Of a stretch of DNA of 64,000 bases, positions 7,531 to 26,329 are shown piece by piece. Position numbers and translations under genes: made by a program. This DNA comes from Escherichia coli (GTDB taxonomy: Bacteria > Pseudomonadota > Gammaproteobacteria > Enterobacterales > Enterobacteriaceae). Numbering within the stretch: the stretch's first letter is position 1; every line of letters starts with the position of its first letter. Where the stretch lies: the NCBI RefSeq assembly GCF_041886205.1, contig NZ_CP169029.1. One strand, given 5' to 3'. The notes beneath the pieces were generated by a model that had not been told where the DNA came from, did not search any database, and worked only from the letters and a program-made list of their open reading frames with translations.

Positions 7531-8706
7531 TTACAGCTTGTTGTAAACACGCGCTAAACGGCCGTGGCCTTTGACAGTCACCGGTGATTCGTTGGCGGCA
7601 ATAAACGCTGATTCACCCGGTTTAAGCTGTAACTGCTGAGAACCTTTCCACAACGTTGCATCGCCTTCGACGCAGAACAAAATGGCGGCACTCTGCTGGC
7701 TAATGGTGGTTTCTTTATCACTAAGGTCATGCAGCGAGAAGGCAAAATCATCCACTGGAATCGGGAAGTCCAGTTCTGCACCTTGTTTCACCGGCTGGGT
7801 CAACAACTGGTTAGCCGGTTTGGCTTCGAATTTCACATTGGCAACCAGTTCCGGAATATCAATGTACTTAGGCGTCAGACCCGCACGCAGCACGTTATCG
7901 GAGTTCGCCATCACTTCCAGCGCCACGCCTTGCAGGTAAGCGTGCGGTGTTTCAGCGAACAGGAACATCGCTTCGCCAGGATTCAATTTCACCACATTCA
8001 GTAACAGCGGGGAGAACAGGCCGCTGTCTTCCGGGTAAAATTCAGAAATTAAACGAATCGTTTGCCACGGTTCACCCTGCTGACTGTCGAGCGCCGATTT
8101 TAAAATCGCCAGCGCGCGGGATTTTTCTTCACCCTGCATATTCAACAGGCTGGCGAACAGTTCGCTTAAACGTTCGGCATTAGGCTGTTGTAAAAAGTGA
8201 GCAATTGCCGGATGTGCACCTGCGACTGGCTGGAGTAGGGAGACAATCTCGGAAAACTCACGAAACGCGTTCATCGCAAGGAAAGGCGTCAGCGCAAAAA
8301 CCAGCTCCGGCTTGTGGTTAGGATCTTTATAGTTACGCTCGGCGGCATCCATCGGGATACCTGCGGCATTTTCTTTGGCAAAACCGATTTCAGAATTGCG
8401 TTTGTTTGGATGAACCTGAATGGAGAGCGGCTGTGCTGCGCATAATACTTTGAACAGGAAAGGCAGTTCGCCAAAGCGTTTGGCAACGGCCTCTCCGAGC
8501 AGAGTCGATTTATCACTCTCAATCACATCACGCAGTGAAACGATATCTCCGGCGGCATTCTGCACTCGTGAACTGCTTTTCGGATGTGCGCCCATCCACA
8601 GCTCGGCCATCGGCTGGCTGGACGGATTTTCCATACCATAAAGTTCAGTCAACGCCGTTTTGCTGCCCCAGGCATAGTTTTGCACTGAGTTAATGAGTTT
8701 TTGCAT
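7531..8706 (-). CDS. manA: mannose-6-phosphate isomerase
   Basis: ORF track frame; start trimmed to the ATG giving the 391-aa product beginning MQKLINSVQNYAWGS. Confidence 0.9.
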   Translation of the reverse strand: MQKLINSVQNYAWGSKTALTELYGMENPSSQPMAELWMGAHPKSSSRVQNAAGDIVSLRDVIESDKSTLLGEAVAKRFGELPFLFKVLCAAQPLSIQVHPNKRNSEIGFAKENAAGIPMDAAERNYKDPNHKPELVFALTPFLAMNAFREFSEIVSLLQPVAGAHPAIAHFLQQPNAERLSELFASLLNMQGEEKSRALAILKSALDSQQGEPWQTIRLISEFYPEDSGLFSPLLLNVVKLNPGEAMFLFAETPHAYLQGVALEVMANSDNVLRAGLTPKYIDIPELVANVKFEAKPANQLLTQPVKQGAELDFPIPVDDFAFSLHDLSDKETTISQQSAAILFCVEGDATLWKGSQQLQLKPGESAFIAANESPVTVKGHGRLARVYNKL

Positions 8707-10693: not shown

Positions 10694-13057
<2,364 letters not shown>

Positions 13058-13098: not shown

Positions 13099-14400
13099 TC
13101 AAGCAGAGGTAAATTGCGGGATGTTATGCCATAACGGCCAGCTAAACGAGAAGCGGGCACCACCCAGTTCGCTGGTGTCACAATTAACCGTACCGCCCAT
13201 TGCCAGTGCTATAGAGTGGACAATTGCCAGCCCCAGCCCACAGCCGCCGGTTGAGCGATCCCGGCTGGGATCGAGGCGAACAAAAGGTTCAAAGATATGT
13301 TCGCGGTTTTCTGGGGCAATCCCTGGGCCATCATCCTCAACAATTAATGTCGCTCTATTCCCCGACAGTAGCAGGCTGGTTTCAACCGTTGAATGGCAGT
13401 AGCGCAGGGCGTTATTGAGCAAATTATCCAGCACGCGCTCCATTAAGCGCATATCCAGTGCCGCGTAATTACCTGGCGTGATCGTTTTTATCCGTACCGT
13501 TTTATCGGGCGTTACTGCCTGAATATCTGCCAGATGCGTTGACAGCCACAACGGCAGGTCTGGTTCGCTAAGATGAAGCTCGTTTTGTGGGCGATCGAGT
13601 CGGGCATAAGTCAGCAGCTCTTCAATTAAAGCTTCAAGTTGACTGATATCACGATTCAACGCCTGGGATTCGGCGGCGCTCAGGTTATCGCTCATCTCCA
13701 GTCGATAACGCAGGCGCACTAACGGTGTTCGCAGTTCATGAGCGATACCGTCAATAAGCTGTTTTTTGCTGGCAATCAAGGCGTTGATATTGTCCGCCAT
13801 CTGGTTAAATGCGATACCAAGTCGTTCAAAGCTCGAACCCTCATCAAAGTGGATACGTTCATTGAGATGCCCATCGCCAAATCGTTGCGCCGCAGCTTCC
13901 AGTTTTAACATATCCTGCCAGTGCGGACGCATCCAGATAAACACCGGAAAGGCGAGGGAAATGGCAATAAAAGCGATTAGGGCGATATCCAGCAATCGCA
14001 TCTGATGGAGGTAATAAAGATAAGGAACAGGACCAACTGCCAGCACGTAGTGGCTGCGCGGGATACGCTGCAAAAACGTGTACTGATCGTCCAGGGCGAC
14101 AATTTCGCCGCCACGCAGTCGGTGCATGGAAATATCATCAAGATGGTATTTACTCAGTGGCTCGACACGCAGATCGAAAGAGAGGTTTAAATCCATCTCT
14201 TTCAGCGTCTTACCCCAGTCGTGTGGGGGGATCTCACGCAATTCGCTGCGCATCAGATACAGCGAACTGTTCATCAAATCATCCAGCGACTGTTTGCCCG
14301 CGCGTTCGGCGGTAAATTTGTACACCAGCCCAACCAGCAGAGACATCACAAGGAAGCAGACAAACAATAACAGGTAAAACTGGATAAACAGTTTTTTCAT
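13099..14400 (-). CDS. rstB: sensor histidine kinase
   Basis: 433-aa ORF with TM segments, H-box (HELRTP) and HATPase G-boxes; operon with rstA. Confidence 0.9.
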   Translation of the reverse strand: MKKLFIQFYLLLFVCFLVMSLLVGLVYKFTAERAGKQSLDDLMNSSLYLMRSELREIPPHDWGKTLKEMDLNLSFDLRVEPLSKYHLDDISMHRLRGGEIVALDDQYTFLQRIPRSHYVLAVGPVPYLYYLHQMRLLDIALIAFIAISLAFPVFIWMRPHWQDMLKLEAAAQRFGDGHLNERIHFDEGSSFERLGIAFNQMADNINALIASKKQLIDGIAHELRTPLVRLRYRLEMSDNLSAAESQALNRDISQLEALIEELLTYARLDRPQNELHLSEPDLPLWLSTHLADIQAVTPDKTVRIKTITPGNYAALDMRLMERVLDNLLNNALRYCHSTVETSLLLSGNRATLIVEDDGPGIAPENREHIFEPFVRLDPSRDRSTGGCGLGLAIVHSIALAMGGTVNCDTSELGGARFSFSWPLWHNIPQFTSA

Positions 14401-14403
14401 CGC

Positions 14404-15123
14404 TTATTCCCATGCATGAGGCGCAAAAAGATAGCCTTTGTTACGCACAGTTTTAATGCGATAAGGTTCTGCGGCGTTATCGAGCAGTTTTTTTCTTAAC
14501 CGCGAAATAGCCACATCCACGCTACGATCCAGTCCGTCATAACTGACGCCGCGTAAATTTTTCAGCAATGCATCGCGGTCCATGATTTGCCCGGCATGGG
14601 TAGCTAATTCCCACAATAATTCGAAATCAGCTGTCGAGAGCGAGATTTCAGTGTTAGCCAGGGTGACTACGCGGTTGATGGGATCGATGGTCAACGTGCC
14701 GAAATGCAGGGCTTTGTAGGGAGTCAGATACGTTTCCTGAAGACCTTTGGTCAGTGTGGCTTGCTCATTCTGACGCAAATGCAAACGTAAACGCGCTAGC
14801 AAAACAGCAGGGGGCGTCGTTTTGAGAATATAGTCGCAGGCACCCATTTCCAGTGCCAGGATGTGGTTCATATCGCTATCGAGAGAGGTTAGAAGAACAA
14901 TCGGTCCAGACCACTTTGCGCGTAAATCACGACAAATGGTCATGCCGTCCTTGCCTGGTAGCATGATGTCGAGTAACACCAAATCCGGATTTTCTCGCAA
15001 AATGGTTTCTTCGGCCTGGTCGCCGCGCGGCTCTACGGTAACCTGCATATCATGTTTTGCCAGGTACGCGGCAATCAGTGAACCGACTTCCGCATCATCT
15101 TCCACAAATACGATAGTGTTCAT
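14404..15123 (-). CDS. rstA: OmpR-family response regulator
   Basis: Receiver domain plus winged-helix output; start chosen at ATG giving 239 aa (MNTIVFVEDD). Confidence 0.85.
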   Translation of the reverse strand: MNTIVFVEDDAEVGSLIAAYLAKHDMQVTVEPRGDQAEETILRENPDLVLLDIMLPGKDGMTICRDLRAKWSGPIVLLTSLDSDMNHILALEMGACDYILKTTPPAVLLARLRLHLRQNEQATLTKGLQETYLTPYKALHFGTLTIDPINRVVTLANTEISLSTADFELLWELATHAGQIMDRDALLKNLRGVSYDGLDRSVDVAISRLRKKLLDNAAEPYRIKTVRNKGYLFAPHAWE

Positions 15124-15251
15124 AACATTCACGGTAGATATAAAAACGTCACAATACACCGCGCTGTTTTTACTTACTATCAATCGTTTCTAAACAAGTT
15201 TTCATCAGGTATTCTACTGATGACTTGTTATGGAAGTGTTAAGGTAAAAAG

Positions 15252-15587
15252 ATGGGGCTGGTAATCAAAGCCGCGCTCGGTGCGCTGGTAGTGCTGTTGA
15301 TTGGTGTTTTAGCAAAAACGAAAAATTATTATATCGCCGGGCTGATTCCACTTTTCCCGACCTTTGCGCTTATCGCGCATTATATTGTTGCCAGCGAACG
15401 CGGCATTGAAGCCTTACGCGCAACCATCATTTTTAGTATGTGGTCGATTATTCCCTATTTTGTTTACCTGGTGTCGCTGTGGTATTTCACCGGAATGATG
15501 CGCTTGCCCGCCGCTTTTGTTGGTTCTGTTGCGTGTTGGGGGATAAGCGCATGGGTGTTGATTATATGCTGGATAAAGCTGCATTAA
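15252..15587 (+). CDS. ydgC: GlpM-family small inner membrane protein
   Basis: 111-aa hydrophobic ORF; K-12 synteny. Confidence 0.8.
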   Translation: MGLVIKAALGALVVLLIGVLAKTKNYYIAGLIPLFPTFALIAHYIVASERGIEALRATIIFSMWSIIPYFVYLVSLWYFTGMMRLPAAFVGSVACWGISAWVLIICWIKLH

Positions 15588-16306
15588 CGCAGATGACGAC
15601 CGCCATCAAGTGGGAAACTGCGTCCGGTGACAAAGCAACTGGTAAGTAAGTAATCGACCAGGTCGATCACTTCTTTCTCGCCAGGCGCGGTTTTCATCAG
15701 TGATTTATTCAGCGCCTGTTGTCGATATTCGGCATCATCATGTTCATTAAACAGGATCAGCGATGGCGCAATAGAATTCACTTTCACTTCCGGTGCCAGC
15801 TTGCGGGCAAACGAGCGGGTCATATTATCCAGTGCCGCTTTGCTTGCAGCATAGGCAATATGTTTGTCGCTACCGCGCTCCACCACATAATCGGTAAAGT
15901 GAATGATATCGCTGGCGGCGTGTCCGTGCCCACGCAGTAATCTTTCCAGAGCATGGTTGAGCAGGTAAGGGGTATTAACGTGGATCTGCATCATGCAAGC
16001 CAGTACGTCGGCCAGTGGCGCACCCGCTTTTTCCGCCATCCACGCACTGGCGTTATGCAAAATAGCACGCAGACCATGGGTGCTTTTTAGTACTTCATCG
16101 GCAAACGCCATCACACCGTCGTTGGTCGAAAAATCAGCCTGAATACACTGCGCACCTGCCTTAATCAGTCCATCAATGGCTGGATAGTGCGTCCGATAGC
16201 TGACAATCACCGGTTGCTTTTGATTAATGAAATGCCAGGCGAGGGCGAGGCCGATGCGACGACCTCCGCCAGTAATTAATATTGGCAAGGGCTGGGCTTT
16301 ACCCAT
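15584..16306 (-). CDS. folM: dihydromonapterin/dihydrofolate reductase (SDR family)
   Basis: 240-aa ORF with N-terminal Rossmann motif ITGGGRRIG. Confidence 0.85.
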   Translation of the reverse strand: MGKAQPLPILITGGGRRIGLALAWHFINQKQPVIVSYRTHYPAIDGLIKAGAQCIQADFSTNDGVMAFADEVLKSTHGLRAILHNASAWMAEKAGAPLADVLACMMQIHVNTPYLLNHALERLLRGHGHAASDIIHFTDYVVERGSDKHIAYAASKAALDNMTRSFARKLAPEVKVNSIAPSLILFNEHDDAEYRQQALNKSLMKTAPGEKEVIDLVDYLLTSCFVTGRSFPLDGGRHLR

Positions 16307-16342
16307 CGTTATCTCCTTTGCTATCCAACGATGGGATGAACG

Positions 16343-17725
16343 TTATCCCACCAGCATCCAGGTCGCCGGAACTGAGGCAATTAACAGCATGCCAATCAGC
16401 ACCATTTCCTGACGGTTCAGTACATTATCATGTGTATGCGTTTTGCGCGCATACAGGAAAACCAGCAGCCCCGGCGCATACAGAACAACGGATAACAGCA
16501 AGTGCATTGGACCAGAGGCGTACAATAACCATAAGCCATAAATGCAGGCACCGACACCTACCGCTTTATGCAGTGGACGGGTTGCGATTTTCAGCAAGAA
16601 CGCGCCGACCAGGAAATAGGGCACCAGAATCATTTCTGAGGCGATGGTCAGCAACGTGTTGTAATCGGAACCGGTCAGCCAGATGAGTACCAGACAAATT
16701 TGCACGCAGATGTTGGTCAGCCACAGTGAGGCGGATGGCGCAGCTTGTGCGTTCTGGCGCGCAAAAATGCGCGGGAATGCTTTATGAGTGGCGGCCAGGA
16801 ACGGAACTTCTGCTGCCATGATGGTCCAGCTTAAGTACGCGCCGCAAACGGAAACGATCAAACCGGCAGCGATGATGATTTCGCCCCACGGTCCCATCAT
16901 TTCCACCATCAGACCGGCCATTGACGGGTTACGAATTTCAGCCAGTTCAGGACGTGCCACCACACCCAGTGAAAGCAGCGTTACCAGCAAGTAAACGCCC
17001 AGAGCGGAGAGAACCGCCAGCAGTGTCGCTTTGCCAACATCACGTTTATTACGCGCACGCGCAGAAACAACCACGGCACCTTCCACACCAATGAAAACCC
17101 ACAGGGTGATCAGCATGGTGTTTTTCACCTGTTCCCAAACGGGTACGCCAAGTGCAAGTCCGGTGAAGTCGAGCTTGAAGGTATCCAGTTTGAACATCAT
17201 CATCGCCAGCACAACAAACAGACCCAGCGGCAACAATTTTGCCAGTGTCGCCACCAGGTTAATGCTGGCAGCGGTTTGCACCCCGCGCAGGATCAAAAAG
17301 TGAACAATCCACAATAAAGCCGATGCACCGACTATCGATTGCCAGGTATTACCATCGCCAAACAGGCGCAATTCCGGCGTGTCCGTAAAAAAGCTTAACG
17401 CGGAAAAAACGATCACCAGATAGGAGACGTTGGCGATGACTGCGCACAGCCAGTATCCCCATGCGGAACAAAAGCCGATTAGCTCGCCAAACCCTTCGCG
17501 GGCATAGGTAAAGATACCGCCGTCAAGTTCGGGACGAATGCGCGTGAGGATCAGCATGGCAAAGGCCAGCAATAAAATGCCAGCGCCAGTAATACCCCAG
17601 CCGATGAGCAGTGCTGCCGGGCTGGCAACTGCCGCCATATTTTGCGGCAGACTGAAAACACCCGCGCCCAGCATTGAGCTTAATACCAGCGCGGTGAGTG
17701 CGCTCAGTCCCAGTTTCTTTTCCAT
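16343..17725 (-). CDS. ydgI: APC-family amino acid antiporter (putative arginine:ornithine antiporter)
   Basis: 460-aa polytopic membrane ORF; K-12 synteny. Confidence 0.8.
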   Translation of the reverse strand: MEKKLGLSALTALVLSSMLGAGVFSLPQNMAAVASPAALLIGWGITGAGILLLAFAMLILTRIRPELDGGIFTYAREGFGELIGFCSAWGYWLCAVIANVSYLVIVFSALSFFTDTPELRLFGDGNTWQSIVGASALLWIVHFLILRGVQTAASINLVATLAKLLPLGLFVVLAMMMFKLDTFKLDFTGLALGVPVWEQVKNTMLITLWVFIGVEGAVVVSARARNKRDVGKATLLAVLSALGVYLLVTLLSLGVVARPELAEIRNPSMAGLMVEMMGPWGEIIIAAGLIVSVCGAYLSWTIMAAEVPFLAATHKAFPRIFARQNAQAAPSASLWLTNICVQICLVLIWLTGSDYNTLLTIASEMILVPYFLVGAFLLKIATRPLHKAVGVGACIYGLWLLYASGPMHLLLSVVLYAPGLLVFLYARKTHTHDNVLNRQEMVLIGMLLIASVPATWMLVG

Positions 17726-23780: not shown

Positions 23781-24146
23781 ATGTATATTTATTGGATTTT
23801 ATTAGGTCTGGCTATTGCTACGGAAATTACCGGTACGCTGTCCATGAAATGGGCGAGCGTCAGTGAGGGAAATGGCGGCTTTATTTTAATGCTGGTGATG
23901 ATTTCTCTGTCGTATATATTTCTCTCTTTCGCCGTTAAAAAAATCGCCTTAGGCGTAGCTTATGCGCTGTGGGAAGGTATCGGTATTTTATTTATTACCT
24001 TGTTTAGCGTTTTGTTATTCGACGAAAGTTTATCGCTGATGAAAATTGCCGGGTTAACCACCCTGGTCGCCGGGATTGTGTTGATAAAATCAGGTACCCG
24101 TAAAGCGCGTAAACCTGAACTGGAGGTGAACCATGGCGCAGTTTGA
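23781..24146 (+). CDS. mdtJ: SMR-family spermidine exporter subunit
   Basis: 121-aa four-helix SMR protein; overlapping pair with mdtI. Confidence 0.85.
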
Positions 24147-25322: not shown

Positions 25323-25597
25323 ATCACACTCTGGTGGGTAATTATGATTATTAAAAGCAAACCCTCATAAATACTATAGACGGGACGGGATGAAAGTGGG
25401 AGTAAAATCAGATAACTACAGTCAGGAAAGATAAAAACGGGCGGCAATCAGTGCGCATAAAATAAGGATGATAAGAATGAACTCAAAGCGATAACGGCCC
25501 ACCATACTACCCTCCGCTAAAGGCGGTGCTAAACGTTACCCGCTTAGCACCGTAATTTTCAGGCGCGAGGGGGCGCGCCAGCATTACTGTTGAAAAC

Positions 25598-25906
25598 TTA
25601 CGCTGCGGGTTGTGCAGCAGGTTTTGCCGGTTGCTGATGGCTGTGTTTCCCGGCGTGTTTCTTCGCTGCCTGCGCTTTTTGTTCAGGGGCTTTATGTTCA
25701 GCTTTCGTATTTTTATGATGCTTTTTAGCCGCCTGCGCTTTCTGGGCAGGTGCTGCTTTATGCTGTTTTTTATGATGTGTAGTTTTCGCCGGCGCTGCTT
25801 TGGTGGTCGTCGCAGTCGGAGCAGGTGTGGTCGCAGTCTCTGCAGCAAAGGCGGCAGAAGACAGACCCATAGCAGCGGCAACAACCAGAGCTAATACTTT
25901 TTTCAT
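25598..25906 (-). CDS. asr: acid shock protein (low-complexity, Lys/Ala/His-rich periplasmic protein)
   Basis: Start trimmed to ATG giving 102 aa (MKKVLALVV...); internally repetitive basic sequence. Confidence 0.85.
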
Positions 25907-26329
25907 TGTCATACCCTCAATTTGTTTTTTCATTTAACCCCACTGCGGGGCCGTTGAAATAACTATATCCCTGGGAATGGCAGACTTCCGTGAGTGGTTG
26001 GTTTCAGCGTGTAACGATATGTACAAACGCTGAATAAATTACAGCATTGATAATAACGTATTGTGACTTAAGGGAAATTTAGCTACCAATAATAGTAGTC
26101 TTGATCGGGTTAACTATTTTACTACTTACAAAGCGGTAGAATAACTGCGCATCAGTAATAAATGACACACAGCAAAATGAATCCGTTTATTTGGGTACTT
26201 ATAATCCTGATGACGCTAGACGCGCTGCGGGAATTGGCTGGCGCTTCGTCTATTTTAGGATGGCTATTAACGTTGGTTTGAGCAAGCAATAAGTCCGGAC
26301 GGGTAGTTACCGCAGTCCGGACTTATTTT

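Follow-up and report, generated by a model that had tools for sequence, protein, structure and literature searches.

The direct repeat TGTTTAGAAACGATTGA, a 17-mer at positions 15180..15196 on the minus strand (the rstA strand) of the 64,000-nucleotide stretch of Escherichia coli DNA analysed here (the window), is very probably the PhoP box of the rstAB promoter, as indicated by its motif, its geometry, its conservation and the literature. This agrees with an earlier interpretation made from the letters of the DNA (hereafter the sequence-only reading), which is supported by orthology to a footprinted site, by motif strength combined with conservation and by published PhoP dependence. The element is already known, as a known PhoP box within a known promoter architecture: through this cis-element, PhoQP (Mg2+, acid, antimicrobial peptide) is linked to RstBA (acid) in a two-component cascade that is textbook knowledge for E. 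coli, Shigella and Salmonella, and confirming the box brings no new biology. What is mildly new is confined to two points, the overlap of the box with the promoter of the divergent gene ydgC and an apparent shift of its register in the Enterobacter clade.

Locus, sequence and motif strength of the PhoP box

The region of the window that contains the box corresponds to the tus-rstB-rstA / ydgC-folM locus of E. coli, and many complete E. coli genomes match this DNA at 100% identity and carry the same gene annotations. On the minus strand lie tus (12094-13035; open reading frame and RefSeq annotation of identical DNA), rstB, which encodes the sensor kinase and is the second gene of the rstAB operon (13099..14400; open reading frame and annotation), and rstA, which encodes an OmpR-family response regulator of 239 aa (14404..15123; open reading frame and RefSeq annotation of identical DNA). 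Open reading frames and annotation likewise place ydgC, coding for a GlpM-family membrane protein, on the plus strand (15252-15587) and folM on the minus strand (15584-16306). The intergenic region that separates rstA from ydgC measures 128 bp (15124-15251) and has a G+C content of only 34%.

Within this region, the box is identified by its sequence, by its weight-matrix score and by orthology to a footprinted box of Salmonella. It consists of the hexamers TGTTTA (15196..15191) and GATTGA (15185..15180), arranged as a head-to-tail direct repeat in direct orientation relative to rstA; the canonical 5-nt spacer, GAAAC, sets the two hexamers 11 bp apart. Half-site 1 matches the (T/G)GTTTA consensus at 6/6 positions and half-site 2 at 4/6, so that the rstA site has the two consensus-like direct hexamers, 5 nt apart, by which a PhoP box is recognized. 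Read on the rstA strand, the layout is ...TCATCAGTAGAATACCTGATGAAAACT TGTTTA GAAAC GATTGA T AGTAAGTAAAAACAGCGCGGTG TATTGT GACGTTTTTATATCTACCGTGAATGTT ATG. The sequence-only reading had put a repeat resembling (T)GTTTA-N5-(T)GTTTA about 55-75 bp upstream of the rstA start, and both parts of that description hold: the half-sites and their spacer are as given above, the match has the top matrix score, and the box is found on the minus strand 57-73 nt upstream of the rstA ATG (15123). Its span for the feature, 15124-15251, is that of the whole intergenic region rather than of the box itself.

How far such a repeat stands out from its surroundings depends on how matches are scored. Counting mismatches to the strict consensus yields 22 two-mismatch sites and one one-mismatch site in the 64-kb window, mostly inside genes, and the rstA site is not singled out among these 23 sites with at most two mismatches. 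Because mismatch counting is non-discriminating, a log-odds position weight matrix (PWM) was built from the 37 DNase-I-footprinted Salmonella PhoP-box 19-mers of Table 1 in Zwir et al. 2012 (PMC3335776), with rstA's own box omitted. Unlike the mismatch count, this matrix separates the box cleanly: with 15.78 bits it tops all 127,964 positions of the two strands, ahead of a second-best score of 12.86 bits, and on the same scale the footprinted training sites have a median of 13.5 bits and the Salmonella rstA box scores 15.1 bits. First-order Markov simulations predict 0.22 sites of at least this score per 64 kb, and shuffling the 128-bp intergenic region reproduces it in 45 of 20,000 trials (0.2%). 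The weight-matrix scan that the sequence-only reading had proposed as a check thus comes out in its favour, and a real regulatory site proves to have been recognizable by a reader without tools.

These figures bear directly on the possibility that the repeat is a functionless, two-mismatch resemblance to a PhoP box that arose by chance in an AT-rich intergenic region. The abundance of equally mismatched, mostly intragenic sites in the window and the low G+C content of the region are what such an origin would lead one to expect; against it stand the first rank in the matrix scan and the rarity of equal scores among shuffled versions of the region, as well as the orthology to a footprinted site and a register to the -10 element that is conserved across genera (see below). 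Given this score, the conserved register and the orthology, chance is effectively refuted.

The same scan finds no second strong PhoP-like site in the rstA-ydgC intergenic region, where the next scores are at most 10.2 bits, for a register that shares the TGTTTA half-site, and 8.8 bits, in the ydgC leader. Since no other strong PhoP-like site occurs there, nothing places the mapped PhoP site elsewhere in the region, the observation that the sequence-only reading had named as fatal to its proposal.

Elsewhere in the window, the next-best matrix matches include 7543-7561 on the minus strand (12.9 bits), which ranks second and is one mismatch away from the strict consensus, and 24000-24018 on the plus strand (12.1 bits), which ranks fifth. 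They lie inside the coding sequences of manA and mdtJ and were dismissed as probably due to chance.

Promoter geometry and PhoP dependence of rstA

The rstA promoter of Salmonella provides the closest reference for the E. coli site. Its PhoP box, TCGTTTAGAAAAGATTTAT, was delimited by DNase-I footprinting as a single protected region of ~20 nt in direct orientation; it lies 23 nt upstream of the -10 element TATGTT and 42 from +1, the -35 element is TGGAAG with a 17-nt spacer, and the leader measures 21 nt by S1 mapping (Zwir et al. 2012 and Table 2 therein, PMC3335776). The same study assigns the promoter to "architecture III", in which the alpha-CTD of RNA polymerase is needed in vitro, and found that reversing the 17-mer kills promoter activity (PMC3335776). 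Consistent with the S1 data, differential RNA sequencing (dRNA-seq) of strain SL1344 puts the primary rstA start 22 nt upstream of the ATG, just downstream of the -10 (PMC3963941 supplementary file 7).

The E. coli box aligns column for column with the Salmonella one, and the gap to the -10 is 23 nt in both. Of the 17 core bases, 14 are identical between TGTTTAGAAACGATTGA and CGTTTAGAAAAGATTTA, the differences being T/C at position 1, C/A in the spacer and G/T at position 5 of half-site 2; the two boxes further share an orthologous position, a single copy, the direct orientation and a leader of ~21-23 nt. A comparison with published footprints, as suggested by the sequence-only reading, therefore identifies the E. 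coli box as orthologous, by position, to the rstA box footprinted with DNase I in Salmonella. The footprint and the alpha-CTD requirement themselves are features of Salmonella rstA, carried over to E. coli by orthology.

Downstream of the box, the E. coli -10 hexamer is TATTGT (15151..15156, minus strand), contained in a GTGTATnnT block and corresponding to the Salmonella -10 TATGTT listed in Table 2 of Zwir 2012. At a distance of 17 nt from it, a weak -35-like hexamer, TAGTAA (15174..15179, minus strand), occupies the position equivalent to that of Salmonella TGGAAG. By alignment with Salmonella, transcription of E. coli rstA should start at ~15146 (15145..15147, minus strand) with a predicted leader of ~23 nt, and the centre of the box would then fall at about -42. 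No consensus sigma-70 promoter was detected by a scan of positions 15000-15400; this null result is uninformative because the rstA and ydgC promoters both have a poor -35, and no such promoter is expected where, as at rstA, promoter activity depends on an activator.

In terms of the geometries known to support activation, with a direct box preceding the -10 by 11-12 or 21-23 nt, the E. coli site falls in the second class: its 23-nt gap equals that of Salmonella rstA and pagP, and the presence of one strong, direct box at 21-23 nt is what characterizes architecture III. The "architecture I" boxes of phoP, mgtA, yrbL and slyB are similar in that they also conform to (T/G)GTTTA-N5-(T/G)GTTTA, are direct and stand in place of a good -35. 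They differ in being located 11-12 nt from the -10 in a class II-like arrangement, with the alpha-CTD dispensable at mgtA, whereas the 23-nt gap of the rstA box places it an additional helical turn upstream. As for the Salmonella sequence itself, the rstA promoter string reported for SL1344, CGTTTAGAAAATATTTA (PMC3963941 supplementary file 7), differs from the box of Zwir et al., CGTTTAGAAAAGATTTA, by G/T at the first base of half-site 2. Both bases are permitted by the (T/G) consensus.

In response to low Mg2+, mildly acidic pH or cationic peptides, the sensor PhoQ phosphorylates PhoP. By extension from the orthologous Salmonella promoter, a dimer of phosphorylated PhoP (PhoP-P) would bind TGTTTA and GATTGA head-to-tail and, from a box centred ~42 bp upstream of the rstA start, would recruit RNA polymerase; contacts with the alpha-CTD would activate the promoter despite its poor -35 (TAGTAA) and weak -10 (TATTGT). 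In Salmonella, architecture III promoters need the alpha-CTD and work in direct orientation only (PMC3335776). The expected output is an rstA-rstB mRNA that would couple PhoQP to RstBA. Targets of RstBA include asr, csgD, feoB and others. The window also contains asr and a small downstream open reading frame, ydgU/samT, at about 25422-25906 (deduced from 25523-26007 of locus L081), ~10 kb from rstAB; both are direct RstA targets and feedback modulators of RstB (PMC13425233), so that two levels of the PhoP -> RstA -> asr cascade are encoded near each other.

Direct repeats with a ~10-11-bp period are the binding sites of all members of the OmpR/PhoB family, and on this ground the repeat could be assigned not to PhoP but to a relative, such as CpxR, PmrA or an autoregulating RstA; we consider this exceedingly unlikely. 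The RstA box is TACATNTNGTTACA and the CpxR box is GTAAA-N5-GTAAA; inspection of the intergenic sequence by eye revealed neither pattern, and the half-sites fit the consensus of PhoP, not the box of RstA or CpxR. Alternative phosphodonors of RstA and cross-talk, which are discussed in PMC13425233, lend some weight to a different regulator; the experimental literature opposes it, documenting both PhoP dependence of rstA and binding of PhoP-P to the region.

In Shigella flexneri, deletion of phoPQ lowers rstA to 0.07 on microarray and to 0.23 by qRT-PCR, and PhoP-P causes a gel shift of a 220-bp probe delimited by primers that map to 15132-15351 of the window, so that the box is included; the genome-wide motif table of that study does not list rstA (PMC5775216). 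In E. coli K-12, a PrstA-GFP reporter shows a graded response to optogenetically set PhoP levels (PMC13215669), and when a plasmid carries rstA under its native promoter, RstA production is dependent on phoP and on limiting Mg2+ (PMC13425233). The statement of the sequence-only reading that rstA is regulated by PhoP is thus matched by published dependence in E. coli, Shigella and Salmonella. A full-text literature search for the box retrieved the Salmonella string alone and not the E. coli one. Minagawa et al. 2003 (J Bacteriol 185:3696) reportedly characterized E. coli rstAB by S1 mapping, gel-shift assays and DNase I footprints, and the site mapped there is, judging from the Salmonella orthologue, probably 15180-15196. 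Papers citing Minagawa et al. 2003 count rstAB as a direct PhoP target, like the other promoters of the E. coli Mg2+ stimulon; the main text of Harari 2010 makes no mention of rstA.

Conservation and rearrangement of the rstA promoter

The regions upstream of rstA were aligned for 80 enterobacterial loci, 68 of which keep the motif GTGTAT(G/T)(G/T)T at most 60 nt from the ATG. Among these 68 promoters, 38 carry a match of at least 11 bits in the exact architecture III register; in the background, 1.2e-4 of positions score as high. Half-site 2 reads GATTAA, GATTGA or GATTTA in 57/68 and half-site 1 reads TGTTTA or CGTTTA in 41/68. The GTGTATnnT block at the -10 is invariant in 22 aligned genera and conserved in 67 sequences, and half-site 2 (GATTnA) is, like the -10, near-invariant in the alignments. 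Closer to the window, E. coli, Escherichia sp. E1V33 and E. albertii have one and the same 19-mer, and every complete E. coli genome with a match (5,421/5,426) carries an 86-bp promoter segment at an identity of at least 95%. Judging from these alignments, the box and the -10 are conserved in most Enterobacteriaceae, that is, the PhoP box recurs in orthologous promoters.

Two E. coli strains are natural disruptions of the rstA promoter region (genomes H1, NZ_CP172108.1, and H20, NZ_CP122499.1). In strain QL57EC, an IS1 transposase lies between or within rstA and ydgC, which breaks the match into two pieces, with ydgC appearing twice; in strain W409, the match covers only 47% of the 86-bp promoter query.

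A different arrangement is found in the group formed by Enterobacter, Lelliottia, Leclercia, Silvania and Huaxiibacter, where 18 loci display an apparent slide of the box (L028, L029, L037, L039, L041, L042, L050, L051, L056, L057, L058, L060, L062, L073 and others, at about 1430-1475 in each). There, the upstream half-site takes degenerate forms such as TAATTT and TAATTG, and an extra half-site, GGTTAA, is located 11 bp downstream of the GATTAA that is kept. The resulting box, GATTAA-TGGAA-GGTTAA, scores 6.6-9.5 bits with the PWM and lies 12 nt, not 23 nt, from the -10; in the E. cloacae rstA promoter, the apparent shifted box is GATTAATGGAAGGTTAA, again 12 nt from the -10. On this comparison, the box appears to have slid towards the -10 by one half-site (11 bp), a move that would convert architecture III into the class II-like architecture I.

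In Kluyvera, the K. oxytoca group and K. indica, the promoters are rearranged or interrupted. The rstA-ydgC spacer of Klebsiella indica (L033, about 505-1500) measures 996 bp in place of about 128 bp: inserted DNA interrupts the PhoP box, with TTGTTTATA on one side and AAAGAATAATGG on the other, and the extra sequence leaves the old -10 (GGTGTATGTT) ~760 bp upstream of rstA. Some Kluyvera have a PhoP-like box ~50 nt from a TATCGT -10; in other Kluyvera and in the K. oxytoca group, no PhoP-like box was found within 160 nt and the upstream neighbour is not ydgC (Kluyvera loci L044, L048, L063, L024 and L031; K. oxytoca group loci L027, L030 and L032). This pattern suggests that PhoP control of rstA has been lost or rewired in these Kluyvera and K. 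oxytoca-group lineages, and the rearranged promoters fit the rewiring of rstA control already described in enteric bacteria (PMC2650801).

Overlap with the divergent ydgC promoter

Just upstream of the box on the rstA strand is a second block, with the consensus CAGCATAACGGAA and the E. coli sequence AGTAGAATACCTGA, which is as conserved as the box itself and whose consensus on the ydgC strand reads TTCCGTTATGCTG. In SL1344, the primary ydgC start found by dRNA-seq follows TATGCT by 7 nt and precedes the ATG by 28 nt, with the promoter sequence ...TTTCTAAACGAGAGCGGTTCCGTTATGCTACACGCTG (PMC3963941 supplementary file 7). From the position of this start, the conserved block is recognized as the ydgC -10; it also keeps a distance of ~35 nt to the ydgC start in loci with insertions. 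In E. coli, the -10 is TATTCT (15210..15215, plus strand; block 15205-15217) and the -35 position placed from it, TTTCTA (15187-15192, plus strand), is inside the PhoP box. The two promoters are thus back to back: the rstA and ydgC starts are 77 nt apart in Salmonella, and in E. coli the predicted ydgC start at ~15223 would be equally distant from the rstA start at ~15146.

This arrangement raises the question of whether the repeat is conserved mainly as the -35 of ydgC, its PhoP-box appearance in E. coli being secondary. The Salmonella ydgC start, which puts the -10 TATGCT 13 nt from the box and the -35 TTTCTA within it, is compatible with this reading, and part of the conservation of the box could stem from an overlap with a promoter whose -10 block is equally conserved. 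The conserved positions, though, are the PhoP half-sites (GTTTA and GATTnA) at 11-bp spacing and do not form a TTGACA-like hexamer, TTTCTA matching TTGACA at only 3/6 positions; moreover, PhoP footprints on the Salmonella box and activates through it (PMC3335776). A primary role as the ydgC -35 is accordingly highly unlikely, and the two roles can coexist.

Such a coexistence would give PhoP a possible influence on ydgC. According to Zwir et al. (PMC3335776), a reversed box 12 nt from a -10 does not activate transcription, and any effect of PhoP on ydgC is therefore expected to be repression or neutrality; a literature search for regulation of ydgC by PhoP returned nothing relevant. Taken together, the proposal that a single box serves both promoters (activating at about -42 of rstA and reversed at about -35 of ydgC), with PhoP modulating ydgC, and that the box slid by 11 bp from architecture III to architecture I in Enterobacter, Lelliottia and Leclercia, is speculative and, as a whole, doubtful. 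If it were true, PhoP would, in turning on rstAB, at once occlude ydgC and so repress or otherwise modulate it.

The predicted 5' leader of ydgC itself contains a direct repeat shaped like a PhoP box, TGTTAT-GGAAG-TGTTAA (15227-15243, plus strand), with a PWM score of 8.8 bits. The repeat ends in a Shine-Dalgarno sequence (TAAGG) and is conserved as TTGTTAT-N5-TGTTAAGG in many genera; it may simply reflect conservation of the leader and ribosome-binding site, since footprinting in Salmonella gave one PhoP site at rstA (PMC3335776).

An Rfam search of positions 14000-16500 returned two sub-threshold chance matches to snoRNA models, both inside coding regions. Around the ydgC -10, the sequence also forms a perfect 7-bp inverted repeat, TCATCAG-N8-CTGATGA (15202-15223), which is terminator-like on both strands. 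It was rejected as a hairpin or operator, its arms not being conserved even in E. albertii (CCGTCGG...CTGATAC) and showing no compensatory change; within the repeat, the central part, corresponding to the ydgC -10, is alone conserved, and the symmetry of the arms is probably fortuitous.
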